From a bacterium (GTDB lineage Bacteria; Cyanobacteriota; Vampirovibrionia; Gastranaerophilales; CAZEDP01), in assembly GCA_043797105.1 (NCBI GenBank), contig JAZDPZ010000060.1, forward strand, positions 7,906-71,905: a stretch of DNA of 64,000 bases. The letters run 5' to 3'. Numbering within the stretch: position 1 is the stretch's first letter; each line of letters opens with the position of its first letter. Of the stretch, positions 1 to 56,521 are shown in pieces. The position numbers and the translations under genes are program-made. Below the pieces are notes generated by a model. The model made no database searches. It was not told the DNA's origin and was given only the letters and a program-made list of their open reading frames with translations.

Positions 1-2238
1 GCGATGAACTTGCATGACATTGGAGTCTCCATATCTGTATGGTTTGAGCTGATCGCTTTTACCATTATTGAGAGCAGGATTATTTTTAAATAATTCTATA
101 AGTTTTTTAGTATATTTTTCTGTATTGTCATAATAAGTTTTAAGTTCGTTTTTGGCGCTTTCTCTGTCTAATATTGATTCTTTAAATGCAGTTCCGTCAT
201 CAACAGAATATCCTTTTTCCCGATTAACCTTATCTCCCAAAGGTTTTCCTGTCAAGTCACTATAGCCAGGATCTGTTCCTGTATATTTTTCCCCTTCCGG
301 ATACTTAACAAAGAATTTAAATCTTTGAATACTTCCATATTCATCGCCCTGAAACAGCATTTTTGGTCCGGGATAAGCAAAAGTCACTCCTAAAGCCAGA
401 CGATTCAAAGCCTGAGCTTCTTTTAGCACTTTCTTAAATTCGTCTTTTGAAACAGGATTATTAATTTTAAGTTCTTGTTGATTATTCCAGATTTTATCAT
501 CGCCTGAATAATAGGCTTCAAGTAATTTCTGTGCGGCATTAGCTGCATTTTGTCCTTTTATTGCCGCATCTCTTTTTGCATCTCCTGTATTTGCTGAATT
601 TATTTTATCGGTCATATTTAATTTAATGTTTAATAATTTTGAAACCAGACGAGTGCCGTCATTATTGCCAATTTCATCATGACTCATAGGATAAGCAATA
701 TTTGTACCTGCCATAGGATCCAAAAACATTTGATCCAGGAATTTCATGGCATCAGCATGCCAGCTATCGCCTTTATATTTATAATCTCCATTAAAATCTC
801 TATGTGTTACCAATGTATGTAAGGCATGGTTAAAAGGAAAACCCCACTGAAAATCGCAGCCAACATTATCAAGAGATGTATTGTTATTTTCTATTTTGTT
901 TATCATTTCTACGTGTTTTGATTCATCGCCGCATTTTTCCTGTGGAGTTAATTTTCTAACTATTCTTGGATCATTTTCTTTGGATATTATTTTTCCGTCT
1001 TTATCTTTTTTTACTTCTTCCTGCCCATGTTCTGCAATAACAGGAGCATCAGGACAATGAAAATTGACCTCTGATACTATTTGCTTTAAAGCGTTGTCAG
1101 ATGTCATTTTCTTGGTCATATCAAGTCTTAAACCATCGCATTTATAGTTAATAAGCCAGTTTAACGCTGTATTAACCAAATAATCCCTGACATGTTTGTC
1201 ATTATTATGTCCCTTATTATTTTTATTATGGTCAGGTTCAAGATTATAACCGGGTCCCCATTCAGTAGACTTACCTTCATATTCGCCAAAATCATTTAAG
1301 ACATTTTTAAAAACAGGGATATGGCTTGGCACAACATCCATTATAACGTTTAAACCAAGATCATGAGCCGAGTTAATAAATTTTTTAAATCCGTCAGGTC
1401 CGCCAAGACTTTTCCTGACAGTAAACGGATCTACTGCATCATATCCCCAACCATTTCCAAGATGATTTCCGACAGGCATAATCTCAATGGCATTAAATCC
1501 AAGGTCTTTAATTGGCTTAAGCATTTTCTTAATTTTTTCGGTATCCCCATTTTTAAGCAGTTCTGAAAGATTTTTATTAAATGTTTCACCGTGCATTTCA
1601 TATATTACAGCTTTTGAAGGTGAAGTTAGTTTAGGATTAACAAGACTAAACCTCTCAGGATTATTTAACCATTTGGTATCAGCTGATACATCATGATTAT
1701 AGTATTCTGACCAGCTGTCTATTTCGGGTTGACTCAATATACAGGGATCTTTTCGGAATAATATTTTTCCTTGTTTATCAGCAAGGATAAATCTATATCT
1801 ATCGCCTTGTTTTATAGGAATTTTACCTGTTTCCCACATTCCTTCTCCACAAGATTTCATTTCCTGAATTTTTGAATGTTCGTTATCCGGTGCGATTGTA
1901 AATTTGTCTTTTATTTTTTGTATTTTGATAGTTCCTGCTCCCTGGGGTCCAGGATCAGATAAATTTTTATCTTTCCATTCAATAAATATTTGATCTGCCT
2001 TTGGCGCCCAAACTGTTAAATTTCCATTAGGATTAATAATTTTTTTATGTTCTTCCAGCTTTCGTCCAAAATTTAGTGATTTTGGCTTTGATAAACAATA
2101 ACCTCTTAATGTTTCTGAACCTGGATATATAGCAGGAACTTTAGTAATATTTTGTGCTGGATTTTGTAACTGTTGTAATGGTAATGGTTTATGTCTGACT
2201 TTCTGGCTTCTCACTCCCACGCTTAATAAATCAATCAT
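1..2238 (-). CDS. GH13 alpha-amylase-family glycoside hydrolase with N-terminal CBM48/E-set-like domain (TreZ / branching-enzyme-like); 3' end runs off the window
   Basis: Absent from the ORF track because there is no stop in the window. My own minus-strand translation from ATG 2238-2236 stays open to base 1 (746 codons): MIDLLSVGVRSQK...LTVWAPKADQIFIEW...GFNAIEIMPV...NVIMDVVPSHI...CDGLRLDMTKKM. DVVPSH and GLRLD fit GH13 conserved regions I and II. Confidence 0.8.
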   Translation of the reverse strand, partial: MIDLLSVGVRSQKVRHKPLPLQQLQNPAQNITKVPAIYPGSETLRGYCLSKPKSLNFGRKLEEHKKIINPNGNLTVWAPKADQIFIEWKDKNLSDPGPQGAGTIKIQKIKDKFTIAPDNEHSKIQEMKSCGEGMWETGKIPIKQGDRYRFILADKQGKILFRKDPCILSQPEIDSWSEYYNHDVSADTKWLNNPERFSLVNPKLTSPSKAVIYEMHGETFNKNLSELLKNGDTEKIKKMLKPIKDLGFNAIEIMPVGNHLGNGWGYDAVDPFTVRKSLGGPDGFKKFINSAHDLGLNVIMDVVPSHIPVFKNVLNDFGEYEGKSTEWGPGYNLEPDHNKNNKGHNNDKHVRDYLVNTALNWLINYKCDGLRLDMTKKMTSDNALKQIVSEVNFHCPDAPVIAEHGQEEVKKDKDGKIISKENDPRIVRKLTPQEKCGDESKHVEMINKIENNNTSLDNVGCDFQWGFPFNHALHTLVTHRDFNGDYKYKGDSWHADAMKFLDQMFLDPMAGTNIAYPMSHDEIGNNDGTRLVSKLLNIKLNMTDKINSANTGDAKRDAAIKGQNAANAAQKLLEAYYSGDDKIWNNQQELKINNPVSKDEFKKVLKEAQALNRLALGVTFAYPGPKMLFQGDEYGSIQRFKFFVKYPEGEKYTGTDPGYSDLTGKPLGDKVNREKGYSVDDGTAFKESILDRESAKNELKTYYDNTEKYTKKLIELFKNNPALNNGKSDQLKPYRYGDSNVMQVHR

Positions 2239-2259
2239 AACAGATATTCCCCAATCTCT

Positions 2260-2279
2260 AACCCTCTAACTCTTAAGTA
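2260..2279 (-). repeat. Family E motif, short variant (AACCCTCTAACTCTTAAGTA)
   Basis: ACCCTCTAACTCTTAA (2261..2276) aligns with AACCTCTAACTCTTAA (61257..61272), a near match by eye. It lies about 22 nt 5' of the minus-strand GH13 start codon. Confidence 0.5.
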
Positions 2280-2409
2280 ATGAACAATAATTTTTTACCT
2301 TTAAAAAAAAAGAGTTTGGTGTAGGGCATAGCCCTACCCTAGTCTAGTTCCCCTCCCTCGAGGGGAGGGGTAAGGGGTGGGTGTATAAAATTTATTGTTA
2401 CCCATTTAA
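2273..2409 (+). mobile_element. Family C MITE-like element, copy C1
   Basis: The ends TAAGTAATGAACAATAA... and ...AAATTTATTGTTACCCAT are inverted around the core AACAATAAATTT. TTAA flanks both sides (2273-2276, 2406-2409). Internal GC-rich hairpins are GTAGGGC-ATA-GCCCTAC and CCCCTCCCTCGAGGGGAGGGG. Related copies are at 13401, 9551, 48808, 55762, 60984 and 44832. Confidence 0.7.
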
Positions 2410-2508
2410 TACTTATCTCTTAATATGTAAAGTTAAAACAGCAAAAAAATTGCTAATAAAAATCGTTTTATTAGCAAAAAATTAAAATTTGTTAATATTA
2501 TTTTAATA

Positions 2509-2637
2509 CTAATACGGATTATAAGTTTTATAATATCCGTTAGTAGAGTCAAAGCCGCTTTCTAGCGCGCTTAACAAAGGTAAAAAAACAAGAATGGCAA
2601 TAATTAGTGCAAAGACCATAAAAAATAATTTTTGCAT
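2509..2637 (-). CDS. Possible 42-aa small hydrophobic (signal/TM-like) peptide
   Basis: My own translation gives MQKLFFMVFALIIAILVFLPLLSALESGFDSTNGYYKTYNPY*. It is below the ORF-track size cutoff, and there is no homology evidence. Confidence 0.2.
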   Translation of the reverse strand: MQKLFFMVFALIIAILVFLPLLSALESGFDSTNGYYKTYNPY

Positions 2638-2714
2638 AGGCGCTTTTTCTCCACTTTTTGGCTAACCATTCAGGGAGATTCTTACAATAAAACTATCTTG
2701 TAACTATACTTACT

Positions 2715-2776
2715 CCTGTCATTCTCAACTAGTTACATTGCCTGTGAAGTTTTAAATTGTGTATATAAAATCTGCC
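2715..2776 (+). repeat. Family B hairpin repeat, degenerate copy
   Basis: CCTGTCATTCTCAAC...AATCTGCC has the same ends as 12991..13063 (CCTGTCATTCTCAGC...GAGAATCTGCC). Confidence 0.45.
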
Positions 2777-2921
2777 TCTTTAGTTTATTATAAAACATCC
2801 TTTTGATAATCGCAATATATTTTTTGATTTAGCAAAATAATATTAAAAAACAGTAATAATATTTGCGATTATACTATATTTAGTATGCAAAAATTCTAAA
2901 ATTTTAGCTGACACACTAAGT

Positions 2922-3548
2922 CTATGACTCTTGCAGATGCTTAACATGCCTGTAAACATAGAGTCCAAATAAAACTAATAAAATACCCACTATTGCGTAA
3001 TCAAATTTATGCCAGATTTCAGTAAGATATTCTCTGTGTTCCCCAAGTTTTAATCCGACAAAAACCAGAAAATAACTCCATACTAAAGACCCCATAAATG
3101 TATAAAATATAAATTTTGGAAAATCAGCCTTTAAAATACCGGCAGGAAGCGAAATAAAAGTTCTGACAACAGGAAGCATTCTGCATATAAAAAATGCGAT
3201 GTCTCCATATTTCATTGTCCATTTATCCGCTAATTCCAGGTCTTTTTTACTTATTAAAAACCATTTTCCGTATTTTTCTATAAAAGGTCTTCCTCCAAAA
3301 TATCCCAGATAATAAGATGGAACAGACCCAACTACACAGCCAAAAGCTCCAGCAAAGCAAGCCACATGAAAATTAATTTCCCCTATACTTACTAAATAAC
3401 CTGCAAAAGGCAATATTGCCTCACTTGGCAGAGGTATATTTGCTGATTCTATAGCCATAAGCATAACTATTCCAAAAGCTCCCAGATTGCTTATGGTATG
3501 TTCAATACATTTGATAACAGGAACTAAAATTACATCAAGACTACTCAT
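2922..3548 (-). CDS. DedA/VTT-domain family membrane protein
   Basis: 208-aa multi-TM ORF with the DedA pattern: ...LPSEAILPFAGYLV...GYFGGRPFIEKYGKWF...RMLPVVRTFISLPAG... Confidence 0.85.
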   Translation of the reverse strand: MSSLDVILVPVIKCIEHTISNLGAFGIVMLMAIESANIPLPSEAILPFAGYLVSIGEINFHVACFAGAFGCVVGSVPSYYLGYFGGRPFIEKYGKWFLISKKDLELADKWTMKYGDIAFFICRMLPVVRTFISLPAGILKADFPKFIFYTFMGSLVWSYFLVFVGLKLGEHREYLTEIWHKFDYAIVGILLVLFGLYVYRHVKHLQES

Positions 3549-3571
3549 AAATTTATAATCCTTTCATAGTC

Positions 3572-3927: not shown

Positions 3928-4590
3928 TTATTTATACAAAAATTCTGCTGAACAACCAAGACCATAACCCGTTTTAGTTGCGCACTGACTTGCCGGAGAA
4001 AAAGTATCACCCTGAATCCCCAAAGGATAAGCTCCATTTTTAGTTAACCAAATTCCAAAAATATCCTTTCCCATTTGATTAGGTCCTTTCCATCCATTCA
4101 CGTCTACTGTTATTGCTCCGCATATAACTGCCCCAAAACCATGAGTAACACTACAAGCAGAAGTTTCATATGAAAACCATACAAAAGTACCATTGTTTAA
4201 GATAGCTCCTGCTCTATTTTGAAAAGTTGTTTCAGGTGTACCATCAAGTCTTTTCCAATTTCCATCATTATGCCAGCAATTTCCTTTGCCTGAAACACTA
4301 TTACAGGATTTATTTACAGTCAGGTATTCAAGAAATTTATCTCTCATATTATCACTACTCGTAAAAACCCCTATCAAAGTTCCTGCATCAGAACCGGTAT
4401 TATTAGCCATTATTGACTCAGTAACCTGACTCAAATCAGCAAAAGCCTGTTTCCATAGTGTTTTAAGATTAGCATCCTGTATATTATGATAAAACGCCAC
4501 AGCTGTAATACTTGCAACAACTCCCAATACCCCTACAGCTATAAGCACTTCGCTAAGTGTAAAGGCTTTTTTTGTATTTTTTTTTGGCAT
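3928..4590 (-). CDS. Prepilin-type N-terminal cleavage/methylation domain protein (type IV pilin / pseudopilin-like)
   Basis: 220 aa. The N-terminus MPKKNTKKA|FTLSEVLIAVGVLGVVASI has F at +1 and E at +5 followed by a hydrophobic helix. The C-terminal part is a Cys-containing globular domain. Confidence 0.7.
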   Translation of the reverse strand: MPKKNTKKAFTLSEVLIAVGVLGVVASITAVAFYHNIQDANLKTLWKQAFADLSQVTESIMANNTGSDAGTLIGVFTSSDNMRDKFLEYLTVNKSCNSVSGKGNCWHNDGNWKRLDGTPETTFQNRAGAILNNGTFVWFSYETSACSVTHGFGAVICGAITVDVNGWKGPNQMGKDIFGIWLTKNGAYPLGIQGDTFSPASQCATKTGYGLGCSAEFLYK

Positions 4591-4629
4591 GGTTTTTTTC
4601 TCCTTATTTATTAAATCTATAATACTTTA

Positions 4630-4650
4630 TTTCATTCCTCGCAATGACAG
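4630..4650 (+). repeat. Family A single arm (TTTCATTCCTCGCAATGACAG)
   Basis: Matches the right arm of the GIY-YIG cassette (3898-3919) except at the last base (G vs A). It overlaps the last 5 codons and the stop of thiE. Confidence 0.7.
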
Positions 4651-5672
4651 TTTATTAAACTATTGAGTATTTTTGAAGCAACAAATTCAGGCGATTCTAC
4701 GTTTATTATCGCCCTTACTACAGCTATTCCCGAAGCTCCTGCTTCAATTACCTGATCCATATTATCCAAATTTATCCCGCCAATTGCAAACCATGGAATA
4801 TTTACGTTTTCTGAAGCCCATTTTACATATTCAAAACCTACTGCTTTTCTTCCGGGCTTGGTAGGAGTTTCAAATACAGGTCCAACTCCTATATAATCAG
4901 CGCCTTGCTGAACAGCTCTTTTTGCCTGTTCCGGAGTATGCGTTGAAATACCTATTATTGCGTCTTTTCCAAGAAAATGTCTTGCTGAACATATATCAAT
5001 ATCATCCTGCCCAAGATGAACTCCATCTGCTTCAACAATATTGGCTATATCAACCCTGTCATTTACTATAAAAACAGCATTATAAAAAGAGCAAAGTTCT
5101 CTTATTTTTTTCCCAAGCTCAATAAACTCTTTTGCTGACGAGTTTTTTTCTCTTAACTGGACAATGCCGACTCCGCCTTTTAAAGCTGAGGCTACTTTAT
5201 CTAAAAACTCGTCATGAGATAAAAAATTGCTTCTGTCTGTAACCAGATACAGTTTTTTATCTTCAAGTTTTTTTATATTGAGCTTTTTTAATAAATTTTC
5301 AAACATGATTTTCTCCAGTGTATAGGAATCATACCTTGCTTTTTCAAAAAATTCTATATTTAAACCGTTAATATTGCCATATTCAGCTAAAACTCTCAGA
5401 GCCTGCTGTAATCTTTTAAAATTAGCTTTAAAAATATCTAAAATATTATTTTTTGATGTTGGATTTATTATGTTTATACCAATATCATCTAAAGTATTTC
5501 TTGATTTTAGCAAAATTTTATAATTAATATTTATAATTTGAGCTAATTCATGCCTTATAAATTTTGTTTTTTGGGTTAAATCTTCATTATTAAGATAAAA
5601 CCTCGAAATTTCTTCGATTACTCTTAAGGCTTCAATTGCTCTGTTTAAATTAGCATCAATTATTCTATACAT
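4632..5672 (-). CDS. thiE: Thiamine-phosphate synthase with about 130-aa N-terminal extension
   Basis: 346 aa. The C-terminal half reads LYLVTDR...VQLREK...FIVNDRVDIA...GVHLGQDD...GISTHT...GADYIGVGPVFETPTKPG...FAIGGIN, which is ThiE. The N-terminal domain starts MYRIIDANLNRAIEALRVIEE. Confidence 0.9.
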   Translation of the reverse strand: MYRIIDANLNRAIEALRVIEEISRFYLNNEDLTQKTKFIRHELAQIININYKILLKSRNTLDDIGINIINPTSKNNILDIFKANFKRLQQALRVLAEYGNINGLNIEFFEKARYDSYTLEKIMFENLLKKLNIKKLEDKKLYLVTDRSNFLSHDEFLDKVASALKGGVGIVQLREKNSSAKEFIELGKKIRELCSFYNAVFIVNDRVDIANIVEADGVHLGQDDIDICSARHFLGKDAIIGISTHTPEQAKRAVQQGADYIGVGPVFETPTKPGRKAVGFEYVKWASENVNIPWFAIGGINLDNMDQVIEAGASGIAVVRAIINVESPEFVASKILNSLINCHCEE

Positions 5673-5764
5673 TGGGATAGGTTAAAAATTAAAATATTGT
5701 TATTTTATAAATAGCTTAATAATTATATCATATAATTATAATAGTAAATTAAAATGGGAAAAGT

Positions 5765-6379
5765 TTGGTGAGACAAAATATAAGAGAAAAATATAAAAAA
5801 ATGCAGCTTACTGAACTGGTTGAAAAAAGCCAGCAGGATGATCGCCTTGCTCTTGAAGAACTGGTTAAAAGAAATGAAAAGATTATATACAGCACTCTTT
5901 ATTATCTTGATCCAAATAGAAAAGATGTTGCCGATCTGGCTCAGGAAGTTTTGTACAGAATGGCGAAATCAATAAAAACTCTCAAAAATCCGGGGACTTT
6001 CAAGTTTTGGCTTAACCAAATTATTATTAATCTTTTTTATGATGAACTCAGAAGAAAAACCAGACGTCTTGTAACAATTTCTATGGATACTCCTTTTATT
6101 GATTCAAATGAAGAAGAAATTTTTCAAACAAGAGATATAGCTGATTTAGCAAGAATGCCTGAAGAAAGGACTTTGTACAGTGAGCTTGATAAAAAAATAA
6201 GAGAAGCAATTGAAAACCTGCCGGAACAGTTTAGGGTTGTAATCGTCTTAAGAGAATTACAGGGGCTTAGCTATGAAGAAATAGCCAAAATTACTAAAAC
6301 CAACATCGGAACAATAAAATCAAGACTTGCAAGAGCCAGAGCAAAACTGCAAGACCAAATCAGACCTTATTTAGAGTAA
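5765..6379 (+). CDS. ECF-type (sigma-70 family) RNA polymerase sigma factor
   Basis: 204 aa with region 2 and region 4: ...VVIVLRELQGLSYEEIAKITKTNIGTIKSRLARARAKL. The track start is TTG, and an ATG 12 codons downstream is an alternative start. Confidence 0.85.
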   Translation: MVRQNIREKYKKMQLTELVEKSQQDDRLALEELVKRNEKIIYSTLYYLDPNRKDVADLAQEVLYRMAKSIKTLKNPGTFKFWLNQIIINLFYDELRRKTRRLVTISMDTPFIDSNEEEIFQTRDIADLARMPEERTLYSELDKKIREAIENLPEQFRVVIVLRELQGLSYEEIAKITKTNIGTIKSRLARARAKLQDQIRPYLE

Positions 6380-9449: not shown

Positions 9450-9546
9450 AAATTTTTATACTAAAGGTTCAATCAACAAAGTCATGAAATGACATTATAA
9501 CTATAATTTAGCTTATCATTAGTCATAAAATATAGACAAATACCAT
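9450..9546 (+). repeat. Family D repeat, copy D1 (about 95 nt)
   Basis: ...CAAAGTCATGAAATGACATTATAACTATAATTTAGCTTATCATTAGTCATAAAATATAGACAAATAC... closely matches 30312..30404 in the same orientation. It contains the hairpin GTCAT-GAA-ATGAC. Confidence 0.7.
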
Positions 9547-9550
9547 TTAT

Positions 9551-9655
9551 CCCTTCCCTCAAGGGAGGGGAATGAGACTAGGGCAGGCAGCAAAGCTGCA
9601 CCATTATGTCCTCACTGGAAGGATTAGTAACTGGTGAATGTGGCTTAGCCACTCC
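9551..9655 (-). repeat. Family C partial copy (C3), reverse orientation
   Basis: This is the reverse complement of the C2 core. A 45-nt stretch ACTAGGGCAGGCAGCAAAGCTGCACCATTATGTCCTCACTGGAAG is identical to the reverse complement of part of 13449..13556. Confidence 0.75.
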
Positions 9656-13350: not shown

Positions 13351-13389
13351 AAAGAAGAAGTGATGCCTTTTAGGTATCTCTTCTTCTTT
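13351..13389. terminator. Bidirectional-looking intrinsic terminator hairpin
   Basis: The 10-bp stem is AAAGAAGAAG / CTTCTTCTTT with a 19-nt loop. An A-run precedes it and a T-run follows. Confidence 0.55.
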
Positions 13390-13400
13390 TTGACTATCTA

Positions 13401-13593
13401 TTAAGTAATGAACAATAAATTTCCACCTTTTAAAAAATGGGTTTGGTGAGGAAGTGGCTAAGCCACATTCACCAGTTACTAATTCTTCCAGTGAGGACAT
13501 AATGGTGCAGCTTTGCTGCCTGCCCTAGTCTAAGTCCCCCTCCCTCGAGGGAAGGGTATAAAGGGGAGGGTGTATAAATTTATTGTTACCCAC
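13401..13593 (+). mobile_element. Family C MITE-like element, long copy C2
   Basis: TTAAGTAATGAACAATAAATTTCCACC...GGGTGTATAAATTTATTGTTACCCAC. Relative to C1 it carries an extra module of about 75 nt (GGCTAAGCCACATTCACCAGTTACTAA...). Its right end supplies the stop codon of the hfq-like gene (13586-13588). Confidence 0.75.
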
Positions 13594-30316: not shown

Positions 30317-30404
30317 TTACTTTGGTTAAACAAACAAAGTCATGAAATGACATTATAACTGTAATTTAGCTTATCATTATTCATAAAACGTAGACAAATA
30401 CTAT
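30312..30404 (+). repeat. Family D repeat, copy D2
   Basis: It closely matches 9450..9546 in the same orientation. Confidence 0.7.
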
Positions 30405-50571: not shown

Positions 50572-52374
50572 TTAAAAAGGCATTTTAATTCTTTTTACGG
50601 TTTCAATACCGTATTTACAAATATAAAGAAATAATGTTTCACGGTATCTTATATACATCCAGACAGGATTATTATAGCTTTTTATAGATTTTCTTGTGAA
50701 ATAATCTATAATTTCATCGAGTTCATTATTTGTAAGCCCTAATGATGCTTTATAAGAGCAGTTTGAAGAAAATTCCTCTTCTTCTTCTGAAAGTTTGATT
50801 ATTCCGAATTTTTCAGGATCATTCTTTATCAGGGCATGTTTTCCAAGAGAAAAGCGGCTTCGTCCATAAGCTGAAATAATATCAGTATTTTGACAAATAA
50901 TATCTATTGTATCAAAAGCATCTTGCTTTGTTTCTGTAGGAAAACCAAAGAAAATATAGGCAAAATTCCAAATATCAGCCTCTTTTGCATCTCTTAAAAT
51001 TTCAAGTCTTTTATCTATGTCAATTCCTTTGTTTATAAGCTCCATTATTCTGTCAGAACCGGATTCCAAGCCCCATAATATCATTCTAAGTCCGGCTTGT
51101 CTTGCGAGTTTTAATATGTCTTTTGTCAAGCTTGTTTCAAGTCTTGCATTGCAGTACCAATTTATTTTTAAGCCGGATTCCAGAATTTTTTCAGAAAAAT
51201 TCTTTAAATAATTAGCATTTATTGCTTCATCAATAAATTCAAAATAAGAAATGCCAAATTTTTCATTAAGTTCTTTAATTTCATTAACAAGTTTATTTAT
51301 ATCTTTTATATTATAAGTTTGACCAAAATCATGATCGCAAAAAGTGCATTTTTTCCAGTAACAGCCACGACTCGCCTGTATTGGAAGCACAATTTCAGGC
51401 ATTAAATATTTTTCAAAACAAAAACCTTCTAAATCCTGCGTAATCATTTCATTTAATTTAAGCGGATAATTTTTAGGATTAACTTTTACTTCATTATTTT
51501 CAAGATAAATTAAGCTTGAAACCTGCTTTATATCGAGCTGTCCTTTTAAATATTCCAATAGTTCGATTACAGGTTTTTCCCCTTCTTCCACTATGATTGA
51601 ATGAGCAAAAATTTCAAAAAATTCAGGATTTTTATAAAAAGCGTTAATTACCCTGCTGAAATAATTACCCCCTATATTTATATGCGCTTTAGTCCTGCAT
51701 TTTAATATTGCGGCAAGGGTTAAACCCGGAATAACCTGTGAATATGCCCCTATTGAAATCCCTATATAATCAGGTTTTTTCTCTATTATAGAAGGAATTA
51801 TTTCATTGTAAAAATTATAAAACATGTTTTGGGATTCATTGAGACAATAATTTTTCATATCCTGAAAACAAAATTTTAAAGCAGGATTTATATAATCATG
51901 CAAGCTTAATTCAGCGGGATAATAAGGAAGAGACAGCATATTTAAAGCTTTATCAAGTATGATAAAAGCTCTTGACAGTAAATTAAGCGAATAAAAATCT
52001 TTTTTGTCTTTCATTACCTTCACGGCAAAAGGTAAAAGCTTTAAAACATCTATAATTTCATCAAATTTTTTTTCTCTTAATTCATTTATTTTTAGAAATT
52101 TTTTAGCATTAATATGAAATTCAGGAGGATATTCCAGATTATCCAATGAATATTCTTTTGAAACAGTATCTTTAAGCTCCTGTTCCATATCAAAAGTTTT
52201 TTCTAATGACGTCCTAAGATATTCAGGAGTAAGAACATAATTATAAAATTCTATGTTTAAGTCTCTAATTTCAACTTTATGATTATTTTGTCTTAAATGA
52301 GCGGCAATGGAGGTTAAAGCAAAATGAGGACTTAAAGGAGACCATTGAGGAGGAAAAAGTAAAAAATTATTCAT
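50572..52374 (-). CDS. Cobalamin-binding-domain radical SAM protein, paralogue 1 (600 aa)
   Basis: The N-terminus is PPQWSPLSPHFALTSIAAHLRQNNHKVEIRDLN (B12-domain-like). The cluster motif is SRGCYWKKCTFCD (51337..51363), followed by ...GLRMILWGLESGS... It is colinear with 52769..54571. Confidence 0.8.
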   Translation of the reverse strand: MNNFLLFPPQWSPLSPHFALTSIAAHLRQNNHKVEIRDLNIEFYNYVLTPEYLRTSLEKTFDMEQELKDTVSKEYSLDNLEYPPEFHINAKKFLKINELREKKFDEIIDVLKLLPFAVKVMKDKKDFYSLNLLSRAFIILDKALNMLSLPYYPAELSLHDYINPALKFCFQDMKNYCLNESQNMFYNFYNEIIPSIIEKKPDYIGISIGAYSQVIPGLTLAAILKCRTKAHINIGGNYFSRVINAFYKNPEFFEIFAHSIIVEEGEKPVIELLEYLKGQLDIKQVSSLIYLENNEVKVNPKNYPLKLNEMITQDLEGFCFEKYLMPEIVLPIQASRGCYWKKCTFCDHDFGQTYNIKDINKLVNEIKELNEKFGISYFEFIDEAINANYLKNFSEKILESGLKINWYCNARLETSLTKDILKLARQAGLRMILWGLESGSDRIMELINKGIDIDKRLEILRDAKEADIWNFAYIFFGFPTETKQDAFDTIDIICQNTDIISAYGRSRFSLGKHALIKNDPEKFGIIKLSEEEEEFSSNCSYKASLGLTNNELDEIIDYFTRKSIKSYNNPVWMYIRYRETLFLYICKYGIETVKRIKMPF

Positions 52375-52703
52375 ATTTTGTTTAATATTTCCTGTACTTT
52401 CTTTTTCAAATCAATTTGCATTTGATTTGAAATTTGCTGAATTTGAACCATTATTTTTTCCTGAATTTCTGTTGGATCCTGATTTATATTTGTGCCTATA
52501 AGTTGTTTTTTTAAAGTTTCTATTTTATTTTGGGCTTTGTCTACAATTTCAAGAGTTTCTTTTATTTCTTTATCATTAAGACCAAGTTTTTTTAAAGTTT
52601 TTTTAATATCTTTTTTAATTTTCTCTCTTTCAGAAAGAATTTCATTAGGAGTATTTTTTTGTTTTTTAAGTTTTTTAAAAAAATCCATAAATATTTTTCC
52701 CAT
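52371..52703 (-). CDS. Hypothetical 110-aa K/E-rich coiled-coil protein
   Basis: The heptad-like sequence is ...KKDIKKTLKKLGLNDKEIKETLEIVDKAQNKIETLKKQL... Its stop overlaps the paralogue-1 start by 4 nt (ATGA), so the two are likely co-transcribed. Confidence 0.55.
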   Translation of the reverse strand: MGKIFMDFFKKLKKQKNTPNEILSEREKIKKDIKKTLKKLGLNDKEIKETLEIVDKAQNKIETLKKQLIGTNINQDPTEIQEKIMVQIQQISNQMQIDLKKKVQEILNKI

Positions 52704-52768
52704 TATATGTTATATAAATTATAATATTATAATATTTTTATCCCAAGACTACAAAGGTTTTATTAAAT

Positions 52769-54571
52769 ATGAAAATAATTCTTATTTATCCCCCTCAATG
52801 GACACCTCTAAATCCTCATTTTTCTCTAATGTCTATTGCGTCTCAGTTAAGACAAAATAATCATAAAGTTGAAATTAGAGACTTAAACATAGAATTTTAT
52901 AATAAAATTCTAAAAAAAGAATATTTGAAAAAATCTCTTGAAAAAGCTTTTAAAATGAAAGAAGGGCTTTTTCAGGAATTATCAAAAAAATTCTCGCCAA
53001 ATAAAAAAACAGAACAGTATTCTGAAAATTTTCAAAAAAAACTTGCAAAATACACAAAAATAAAAGAAACAGAAAAAAATTCGGAAGAAAATCTATATAT
53101 TATAGATTCTATAGAAGAAGCTGTAAGCATAATGAAGTGCAAAACAAGATTTTATGATTCTGATCTTCTTATCAGGTCTTTAAATACTATAGATGCTGCA
53201 TTGGAAATAGCTTCCCTTCCTTTTTGTCCTTCTTTGTTGCAATTACATGATTATAATAATCCTTTTTTAAAGCTGACTTTTGAAAGTATTAAAAAACACT
53301 GCCTTGATAAATCTACAAATATGTTTTATGAATTTTACGAAGAAAAAATATCTGAAATTTCTTATGAAAGTCCTGATATCATTGGAATTTCTATAAATTC
53401 ATCCTCTCAAATAATACCGGGGCTAACTCTTTCAATGATGCTAAAATCAAAAACCAAAGCGCATATAAATATAGGAGGGAATTTTTTTGGCAGAGTATCT
53501 GAAACCCTTTTGAACAATACTGAATTTTTTGAACTTTTTGCTCATTCACTCATTGTAGAAGAAGGGGAAAAACCTATAGCAGAGCTTGTGAAACATCTTG
53601 AAGGCAAAATAAATATAAATGAAGTTCCAAATTTAATGTATTTAGAAAATAAAATAAATAAAATAAATTTTAAAACAGAACCTCTTACTTTAAATGAAAT
53701 AAATATTCAGGATTTGGAAGGTTTTCCTCTGGATGCGTATTTTACTCCGCATATTGTGCTTTCTGTACAATCAAGCAGAGGATGCTACTGGCGAAAATGT
53801 TCTTTTTGCGATCAGGATTTTGGTCAAAATTCCAGCATAAAAGACATTGATAAACTCTTTTCAGAATTAAAATACTTAAAAGAAAAGTTTAATATAAGTC
53901 ATTTTGAGTTTATAGATGAATCTGTAAGTCCTGTTTATCTTGAAAACATATCAAAAAGAATATCAGAAGAAAATATTGAAATTAATTGGTTTATAAATGC
54001 CAGACTTGAAAATGCTTTTACTCATGAGCTGCTTGAAAAAACAAGGCAAGCCGGACTTAGAATGATATTATGGGGATTTGAATCCGGATCAAACGAGGTA
54101 ATGAAACTTATAAACAAAGGTATTGATCTGGATAAAAGACTTGAAATTTTAAGAGATGCAAAAGAGGCTGATATTTGGAATTTTGTTTATATTTTCTTTG
54201 GTTTTCCTACAGAAACTTGGGACGATGCCCTAAAAACAATAGATATTATTTGTCAAAATACAGATATAATATCAAGTTACGGCAGAAGTGTTTTTACACT
54301 TGGAAAACATACAAAATTAAGAGAAAGTTGTGAAAAATACTCAATTACAAAAATTTTGGAAAATGAAGAAGAATTTTCTCCAAGTTATAAATATGAAACT
54401 TCAAAAGGAATGAACTCAAAAGAAATATCTGAAGCCGCAAATTTATGCACAAAAATATGTAATGAAGCTTATGAAAGCCCTCTTTGGATGTATTTAAGAT
54501 ATAGAGAAATTTTATTTCTCTATATCTGTAAATATGGCGCAAATATAGTTCAAAAATTCAAAAAACATTAG
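52769..54571 (+). CDS. Cobalamin-binding-domain radical SAM protein, paralogue 2 (600 aa)
   Basis: PPQWTPLNPHFSLMSIASQLRQNNHKVEIRDLN, cluster motif SRGCYWRKCSFCD (53783..53809), and ...GLRMILWGFESGS... Confidence 0.8.
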   Translation: MKIILIYPPQWTPLNPHFSLMSIASQLRQNNHKVEIRDLNIEFYNKILKKEYLKKSLEKAFKMKEGLFQELSKKFSPNKKTEQYSENFQKKLAKYTKIKETEKNSEENLYIIDSIEEAVSIMKCKTRFYDSDLLIRSLNTIDAALEIASLPFCPSLLQLHDYNNPFLKLTFESIKKHCLDKSTNMFYEFYEEKISEISYESPDIIGISINSSSQIIPGLTLSMMLKSKTKAHINIGGNFFGRVSETLLNNTEFFELFAHSLIVEEGEKPIAELVKHLEGKININEVPNLMYLENKINKINFKTEPLTLNEINIQDLEGFPLDAYFTPHIVLSVQSSRGCYWRKCSFCDQDFGQNSSIKDIDKLFSELKYLKEKFNISHFEFIDESVSPVYLENISKRISEENIEINWFINARLENAFTHELLEKTRQAGLRMILWGFESGSNEVMKLINKGIDLDKRLEILRDAKEADIWNFVYIFFGFPTETWDDALKTIDIICQNTDIISSYGRSVFTLGKHTKLRESCEKYSITKILENEEEFSPSYKYETSKGMNSKEISEAANLCTKICNEAYESPLWMYLRYREILFLYICKYGANIVQKFKKH

Positions 54572-55626: not shown

Positions 55627-55761
55627 GATGAGTCGATAAAATAAATAACTTATGAGATTTTTCGGGTTACGCCCTCTAAACGACAATTAATTAATGCGTT
55701 TACTATAATATTAATAGATCTTTACAATAAAATAAACAAATTTTTCTTTTCATTTGTTTTA

Positions 55762-55837
55762 TAAGTAATGAACAATAAATTTTTACTTCTTAGAAATGGG
55801 TTTAGTATAAGGCTTTGCCCTATAGAAGTCTAGTTCT
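55762..55837 (+). repeat. Family C left-half copy (C5)
   Basis: TAAGTAATGAACAATAAATTTTTACTTCTTAGAAATGGGTTTAGTATAAGGCTTTGCCCTATAGAAGTCTAGTTC parallels 2274..2350. Confidence 0.65.
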
Positions 55838-55870: not shown

Positions 55871-56521
55871 ATGCTGGAAAGATTGAATATTATAACTCCT
55901 CTGCAGAGAAAATATCATAACGCAAATTTAATTGCCTTGAACAAAAATCTTATAGTTCCTGCTCTTGCTATTGGAAGTTTATTTTCTATGTCGGAAAAAA
56001 ATAAAGATGATCTAAAAAAACATACTTATTTAATAAACAATATTACTGGGGCATGTCTAAGCGTATTTTTGCGAAATATGAAGGATTATAACTGGGCAAA
56101 GAATGACTGGTCAATGCTTCCTTTAGCTGCAGTATCTACTATTGCTGTTCGCGCTTCAGGTAAGGAAACAAAATACGATAAAATAGCTTCTGTAATAAAG
56201 GATACAGTTTGGCTTGGTTGTGGTTTAGCTTTTAAAGCTCTCTTTTCCAATAAATTTTGGGGACCAAAACCTTCAAGCGTATTTGGTTTTTTGAGTGATG
56301 TTTGCGCTTTTATAGTTGGAGCAATAGTGGTTTCGCCTGTTGTCAACAAATTTTTAATTAAAAACTTTTTAGATCCAAATGTCTCTAAACTTGATTCAAA
56401 AATGCTTAGAAAATTGGATTTGCAGGATCAATCACCACTTCCAATATCACTGGATAAATATAATACAAGCAGGATAACAATGCCGGAAAGTTATATTAAA
56501 TATTTAAAAAGACCAAATTAA
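55871..56521 (+). CDS. Hypothetical membrane protein
   Basis: 216 aa with several hydrophobic segments. Its 3' end overlaps the converging trpF gene by 18 nt. Confidence 0.45.
   Translation: MLERLNIITPLQRKYHNANLIALNKNLIVPALAIGSLFSMSEKNKDDLKKHTYLINNITGACLSVFLRNMKDYNWAKNDWSMLPLAAVSTIAVRASGKETKYDKIASVIKDTVWLGCGLAFKALFSNKFWGPKPSSVFGFLSDVCAFIVGAIVVSPVVNKFLIKNFLDPNVSKLDSKMLRKLDLQDQSPLPISLDKYNTSRITMPESYIKYLKRPN

Follow-up and report, generated by a model that had tools for sequence, protein, structure and literature searches.

Short identical tracts in a divergent pair of radical SAM paralogues from an uncultured Vampirovibrionia bacterium point to gene conversion between inverted gene copies

Paralogous genes that lie in inverted orientation on one chromosome can exchange sequence. 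In Salmonella enterica, the inverted paralogues tufA and tufB undergo gene conversion, a non-reciprocal exchange in continuous tracts, through general homologous recombination and with no dedicated invertase, and, among events selected at one site, nearly half are associated with inversion of the intervening segment (PMC5485169, citing Hughes 2000). More broadly, tracts of the kind detected by GENECONV, and concerted evolution of paralogues in general (e.g., PMC2720389), are recognized by stretches with definite bounds in which paralogues are closer to each other than to their orthologues, silent sites included, with flanks that remain orthologous. In gene-overlapping ("partial intergenic") invertons and shufflon-like inversions, repeats inside homologous coding regions flank promoters and the 5' ends of genes, so that inversion swaps these parts in frame (10.1101/2023.03.11.532203, discussing Milman et al. 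2023). Finally, template switching at quasipalindromes turns imperfect arms into perfect ones and can invert the spacer (PMC8604942, PMC7202029). Here, we describe a locus that shares features with all four systems. It lies in a stretch of 64,000 nucleotides (nt; hereafter, the window) of contig JAZDPZ010000060.1, which belongs to the metagenome-assembled genome (MAG) of an uncultured bacterium of the Melainabacteria/Vampirovibrionia; the public data consist of one 83,923-bp contig, the only assembly of this organism. The locus comprises 2 divergently transcribed paralogues, A and B, of the radical S-adenosylmethionine (SAM) enzyme superfamily, and a small conserved gene between them; a 57-nt perfect inverted repeat joins the 5' regions of the 2 paralogues (Table 1). 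A first-pass annotation of this DNA had proposed gene conversion between A and B and, in addition, a possible invertible promoter/leader segment between the arms of the repeat. We consider it likely that A and B are ancient inverted paralogues which have lately exchanged short tracts by gene conversion, with the repeats as a by-product and no demonstrated switch.

The 2 paralogues, which are 0.4 kb apart, are 56% identical at the amino acid level and 68% identical at the nucleotide level. Their codon-aware alignment contains perfect runs of 57, 55, 29, 29, 26, 20, and 18 nt that share a single codon phase. The longest of them, tract 1, is an exact reverse complement at 57 of 57 positions, as previously annotated, and cannot be extended by even one base on either side. 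Across the window, this 57-mer occurs at just these 2 sites even when 3 mismatches are allowed, with 0 occurrences expected from shuffled sequences. The second tract that had been annotated, 50930–51015 against 54131–54216, is indeed 84/86 identical with mismatches at 54186–54187 and is made up of a 55-nt (tract 2) and a 29-nt perfect run.

Three runs of matching polymorphic sites are longer than expected by permutation. In a Sawyer-type permutation test on a gap-free codon alignment of 10 genes (1,266 polymorphic sites, 45 pairs), A and B of the window share a run of 37 matching polymorphic sites at codons 27–45, the longest among all 45 pairs, surpassing even orthologues that are 80% identical (pairwise p < 1/2000; global p = 0.002). 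When sites were permuted within the pair, the runs of 37, 25, and 18 sites (codons 27–45, 457–471, and 492–500, respectively) exceeded those in all 20,000 permutations, for which the corresponding maxima were 25, 18, and 14.

Comparison with relatives shows that the identity is specific to this lineage. The same 3 genes are present in 4 related loci, L001, L002 (=L003), L005, and L008. In tract 1, A and B are 100% identical to each other and 61% to 81% identical to 8 orthologues, and the best match to this tract among 91 family genes reaches 81% (median, 58%). Outside of tract 1, orthology is kept: in segments covering codons 1–26, 46–120, and 516–600, A is nearer to the A genes and B to the B genes of the relatives. 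The likeness between A and B extends to silent sites, with third-codon-position identity of 1.00, 0.93, and 0.83 in the 3 tracts of the window, compared with 0.53–0.68, 0.41–0.62, and 0.39–0.65 in the same regions of the A/B pairs of the 4 relatives. At the protein level, the states QNNHKVE, ILRDAKEAD, and TIDIICQNTDIIS (the last in the region of codons 492–500), all at positions that vary within the family, are common only to A and B of the window. Orthologues in which the tracts are equally conserved at the nucleotide level, the observation that the first-pass annotation had named as evidence for selection on the sequence itself, were looked for and did not occur. Collectively, the permutations, the synonymous-site identity, and the orthologue comparison support gene conversion between the inverted copies.

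The proposed exchange took place between genes that had diverged long before. Vampirovibrionia contain many members of the family (744 proteins at E ≤ 1e-20), and in a distance (neighbor-joining) tree of 91 members, A groups with L001_1, L002_1, L008_1, and L005_2, all of which have the small gene upstream, and B groups with L001_2, L002_2, L008_2, L005_1, L006, and L007. Given that A and B form separate clades with the same branching order in each, (L005,(WIN,(L001,(L002,L008)))), where WIN is the window, the A/B duplication is older than the split of these lineages. The orthologues themselves are just 58% to 69% identical in protein sequence.

At least 2 conversion events are needed, because tract 1 and tracts 2 and 3 lie 1.2 kb apart across sequence that is 57% to 66% identical; tract 1 (codons 27–45) and tracts 2 and 3 (codons ~455–500) would thus be products of separate events. 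The latter are enclosed in a wider zone of 269 nt with 84% identity, which suggests older or patchy exchange. The states shared in tracts 2 and 3 resemble those of the B clade, with ILRDSHEAD...NFVY in L005_1 and TI...ISS in B-type genes, and therefore B was probably the donor and A the recipient. We also note a further region of similarity at codons ~250–272 (~51560–51630 in A and 53516–53585 in B; PEFFE.FAHS.IVEEGEKP), where A and B of the window are 86% identical. Within the same region, at codons 252–259, L008 carries the longest A/B run of its genome (15 polymorphic sites; pairwise p = 0.0045). This similarity may stem from an earlier or a separate conversion event, or simply from tight constraint on the motif.

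We propose that, in this lineage only, short stretches were copied between the paralogues by non-reciprocal homologous recombination, that is, gene conversion. Because the 2 genes are mutually inverted, conversion tracts between them show on the DNA as perfect inverted repeats; the 57-nt repeat would accordingly be a by-product of conversion and not a dedicated recombination site. Crossover at the 57-nt or the 55-nt arms, which RecA may occasionally bring about, would flip the intervening 550 nt or 3.1 kb, respectively, and yield in-frame chimeric genes. The minimal efficient processing segment for homologous recombination in Escherichia coli is roughly 25–30 bp, a length that both pairs of arms exceed, and a rare RecA-driven inversion is a possible by-product of conversion. 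The proposed exchange between inverted copies resembles that of the tuf genes, although the 2 systems differ in scale: tufA and tufB are far apart on the chromosome and differ at only 12 nucleotides, whereas the copies in the window are 68% identical, divergent, and 0.4 kb apart, with tracts of 26–57 nt, a conversion deduced from sequence comparison, and an inversion that is hypothetical.

Several points weigh against gene conversion as the source of the tracts. Strand exchange between genes that are 68% identical is expected to be inefficient and to be opposed by mismatch repair. The tract borders are very sharp and adjoin highly diverged flanks, which is unusual for classical long-tract conversion. 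The direction of transfer is ambiguous for tract 1, in which R28 is A-like and N31 and K33 are B-like. The tracts and their orientation are known from a single assembly of the organism. Finally, replication template switching could yield the same pattern.

The last of these points amounts to the strongest alternative, namely, that the arms were homogenized by template switching between imperfect inverted repeats, as at quasipalindromes, and not by RecA-dependent conversion. When template switching occurs between non-identical inverted repeats, their arms become homogenized and the spacer may be inverted (PMC8604942). Such a process needs little flanking homology and would fit the sharp borders within genes of 68% identity. 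However, documented events prefer short arms and spacers, and the repeats affected are significantly shorter-spaced (PMC8604942). Known arms measure ~10–16 bp and are separated by a few bp, whereas those of the window measure 55–57 nt and enclose spacers of 550 nt and ~3.1 kb. Although the pattern left by template switching and that left by RecA-dependent conversion are inseparable in the sequence, the dimensions of the repeats make template switching rather unlikely, and we favor gene conversion.

The second alternative is that the 57-nt arms are recombination sites of a functional invertible element, in which a flip of the segment between them produces phase variation between 2 expression states. 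The geometry that had been proposed for such a flip is sound: each arm begins at an offset of 78 nt within its gene, the codon phase is shared, and both open reading frames (ORFs) would survive. A flip, if it took place, would create the in-frame chimeras B(1–26)+A(27–600) and A(1–26)+B(27–600) and would place the small gene, ATGA overlap included, ahead of the body of B. Both putative promoters lie inside the segment, a second, nested pair of 55-nt arms is present, and gene-overlapping invertons are a documented class of elements (10.1101/2023.03.11.532203). Nevertheless, the resemblance to that class is geometric only: no invertase was found among the ORFs tested across the window, relatives do not share the repeats, and a single orientation is known. 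Gene-overlapping invertons and shufflon-like systems usually have an invertase nearby, and their definition rests on the presence of both orientations in sequencing reads.

Further evidence speaks against an invertible element. L001, L002, and L008 have the same divergent layout as the window, with the small gene between A and B and codirectional with A, and yet no repeat comparable to that of the window was found in these loci or in L005, where the longest runs shared by A and B measure 17–26 nt and occupy other positions. None of the 37 ORFs spanning the window that were scanned against Pfam contains a recombinase domain, although the rest of the genome could still encode one, and a motif scan of all window ORFs of at least 100 amino acids (aa) detected no serine- or tyrosine-recombinase motif. 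Codons 1–26 of A carry the diagnostic residues of A-type genes (S12, S15, T21, and AA24–25) and those of B are B-type; because the N-terminus of each gene thus matches its own gene type, the assembled orientation is the ancestral one. The small gene is located 5' of an A-type gene in 5/5 loci of the clade that includes the window.

Searches of public data gave no indication of the flipped form. The A and B proteins of the window have 1 entry each in a collection of 15 billion proteins, both from the same NCBI MAG contig, and neither of the chimeric proteins is found in that collection. The 41-nt core of the arm has 0 matches in the metagenome contigs of the Joint Genome Institute, and, for A, B, and the small protein alike, no contig that encodes the exact sequence, and in which alternative junctions could be sought, is on record. 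Given that the organism has been assembled only once, these database negatives weigh little. Still, the lineage-specific repeat, the lack of a recombinase in the ORFs tested, and the N-termini that match their own gene bodies leave the invertible promoter/leader segment unsupported; we regard it as improbable and see no sign of a programmed or selected switch. About as hard to credit is a switch driven by homologous recombination without any recombinase, in which the nested 57-nt and 55-nt pairs would give up to 4 in-frame combinations of isoforms. Such shuffling would swap the promoter, the N-terminal 26 residues, the coupling to the small protein, and/or the C-terminus from ~codon 470, and gene conversion would keep renewing the arms.

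A highly implausible source of the identity is purifying selection acting directly on the nucleotides or the RNA, for instance, on a regulatory or translational element shared by both mRNAs. The same 57-nt sense sequence is indeed found near the 5' end of both mRNAs, and part of tract 1 encodes the conserved peptide IRDLNIEFYN. However, such selection is contradicted by the divergence of the other family members in tract 1 and by the modest third-codon-position identity of the relatives' A/B pairs there, both given above, as well as by the variable residues QNNHKVE, which are derived states confined to this genome. No RNA structure is predicted for the arm (z = 0.21), the 5' 142 nt of B and of A have z-scores of −1.59 and +0.52, respectively, and Rfam returned 0 matches across the whole window at gathering thresholds; the z-score of the arm and the lack of an Rfam match lend no support to a structured RNA element of any known type. 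Just as hard to believe is an artefact from assembly or polishing of the MAG. There is a single assembly, 57 nt is near common assembler k-mer sizes, and the inner segment could in principle have been assembled the wrong way round. However, assemblers do not create identity between paralogues that are 68% identical, and reads would not be mis-mapped at such divergence. The tracts also keep the reading frame and code for plausible protein sequence, and the assembled orientation pairs N-termini with gene bodies as in the ancestral state.

Gene conversion between A and B, our preferred explanation, is a phenomenon of a well-known kind, that of conversion tracts and concerted evolution of paralogues, at a new locus. 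The window provides one more example, from uncultured Melainabacteria and an uncharacterized radical SAM family, that does not differ in kind from GENECONV-type tracts described elsewhere. Knowledge of recombination itself is unchanged, but the locus constitutes a statistically solid case of short-tract conversion in inverted paralogues that have diverged widely (68% identical). It also shows that perfect inverted repeats in divergent gene pairs can arise from conversion, which calls for caution in inverton-prediction pipelines: such repeats should not be called invertons without read-level evidence.

Table 1. Features of the A/B locus, with positions counted from the first nucleotide of the window.
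Feature	Coordinates	Strand	Remarks
Radical SAM paralogue A	50572–52374	−	600 aa; P0030 / MFH0703170.1; ORF and Pfam Radical_SAM
Radical SAM paralogue B	52769–54571	+	600 aa; P0001 / MFH0703172.1; ORF and Pfam Radical_SAM
Small conserved gene	52371–52703	−	110-aa ORF; NCBI annotation 105 aa from 52688
Divergent intergenic region, 65 nt	52704–52768		Carries face-to-face promoter-like hexamers
Promoter-like hexamers, minus strand	52746–52718	−	TTGGGA-17-TATAAT; consensus match only
Promoter-like hexamers, plus strand	52697–52725	+	TTCCCA-17-TATAAT; consensus match only
Left arm of the 57-nt perfect inverted repeat (conversion tract 1)	52240–52296	−	A codons 27–45
Right arm of the 57-nt perfect inverted repeat	52847–52903	+	B codons 27–45
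Segment between the arms, 550 nt	52297–52846		A codons 1–26, small gene, promoter region, B codons 1–26
Conversion tract 2, A side	50961–51015	−	55-nt perfect match to 54131–54185
Conversion tract 2, B side	54131–54185	+	Perfect match to A side
Further perfect runs, A side	50885–50958	−	29 nt (50930–50958) and 26 nt (50885–50910, tract 3), with an unconverted patch between
Further perfect runs, B side	54188–54261	+	29 nt (54188–54216) and 26 nt (54236–54261)
Another 29-nt perfect run	51071–51099 (A) / 54047–54075 (B)		
Wider zone of 269 nt, 84% A/B identity	50836–51104	−	Pairs with 54042–54310; encloses tracts 2 and 3
Junction sequences			Present orientation, TGATTATTTTGTCTTAA joined to ATGAGCGGCAATGGAGGTTA; flipped form would be TGATTATTTTGTCTTAA joined to CTGAGACGCAATAGACATTA

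Both paralogues contain the radical SAM core (PF04055; Pfam E-values of 2.6e-17 for A and 6.3e-18 for B), and the 3 cysteines of the cluster motif, C339, C344, and C347, do not vary among 20 homologues. The cluster has the spacing Cx4Cx2C (GCYW[KR]KC[ST]FCD; B residues 339–347, window positions 53783–53809, and the equivalent site in A), as opposed to the canonical Cx3Cx2C. The B12-binding domain PF02310 gives a score of only 17.2 bits in A, against a cutoff of 32.1, and has no match in B, but is among the precomputed annotations of some homologues. The best NCBIfam matches of A and B all belong to B12-binding radical SAM families and all fall far below the cutoffs. The nearest of these families, TIGR03975, a radical SAM C-methyltransferase of the maturation of ribosomally synthesized and post-translationally modified peptides, scores 117–119 bits against a curated cutoff of 281.85, and A and B are not members. 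A sequence search of the PDB with B returned only a distant match to the radical SAM core, that of the queuine lyase 6p78 (4.9e-05), and a literature search on this radical SAM family in Melainabacteria yielded nothing relevant. Judging by sequence features, A and B are best named B12-radical-SAM-like enzymes.

The stop codon (TGA) of the small gene overlaps the start codon of A (ATGA), an arrangement typical of translational coupling, and the 2 genes are probably co-translated. The number of promoter-like hexamers in the adjoining intergenic region is no higher than in shuffled sequences, the DNA having 31% GC. The NCBI start of the small gene, MDFFKK at 52688 (P0121), is matched by several orthologues that begin at a similar M(D/N)F(F/L)KK motif, so that the 110-aa ORF from 52703 probably includes 5 codons too many. 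The content given for the 550-nt segment in the first-pass annotation, namely, codons 1–26 of A, the small ORF, the intergenic region, and codons 1–26 of B, holds in every respect except this length, the gene being annotated at 105 aa. The small protein has no Pfam family, and a homology search returned only the window protein; homologues were gathered by tblastn of related loci. The resulting family (~105–110 aa, rich in lysine and glutamate) is found in ~50 Vampirovibrionia loci, ~45 of them from Gastranaerophilales (e.g., L009, 5828–6124), and has a near-invariant central motif, L(I/N)GTNIN; in every case, the gene is a neighbor of one B12-radical-SAM paralogue. The small protein could be a substrate or a partner of the radical SAM enzymes. 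The conserved module of 2 uncharacterized B12-radical-SAM paralogues and a GTNIN protein, present across Vampirovibrionia, may be of greater biological interest than the recombination between the paralogues.

The arrangement of the module varies. In L005 (6001–10114), the layout is convergent, with B on one strand facing A and the small gene on the other. Recombination between paralogue repeats was considered as the origin of this layout and rejected, because an inversion of that kind keeps the divergent layout; the module has thus undergone at least one rearrangement for which such recombination cannot account. In Gastranaerophilales genomes, the small gene is directly 3' of one radical SAM gene, and several of these genomes have the second paralogue on a different contig. 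L028 contains a divergent pair of family members (1764–3557 on the minus strand and 4025–5794 on the plus strand) ~470 nt apart, between which tblastn finds no homologue of the small gene.

The rest of the window is occupied by housekeeping genes, among them those for a class II ribonucleotide reductase-like protein, a glycosyltransferase, BioY, trigger factor, ClpP/ClpX, Lon, MotA/B, NifU/NifS, GAPDH, and TIM. Other repeats are dispersed among them. A 63-nt direct-repeat family with the core TAAGTAATGAACAATAA is present at 2253–2315, 13381–13443, and 55741–55803, the third copy being located just 5' of a 216-aa ORF (55871–56521), and may represent a shared regulatory or promoter motif. In addition, there is an 81-nt direct repeat of 90% identity (9466–9546 and 30324–30404), and one of its copies is adjoined by a 106-nt inverted repeat of 89% identity (9548–9653 and 13453–13558) with no Rfam match at gathering thresholds; these last 2 repeats together resemble copies of a small repetitive element.

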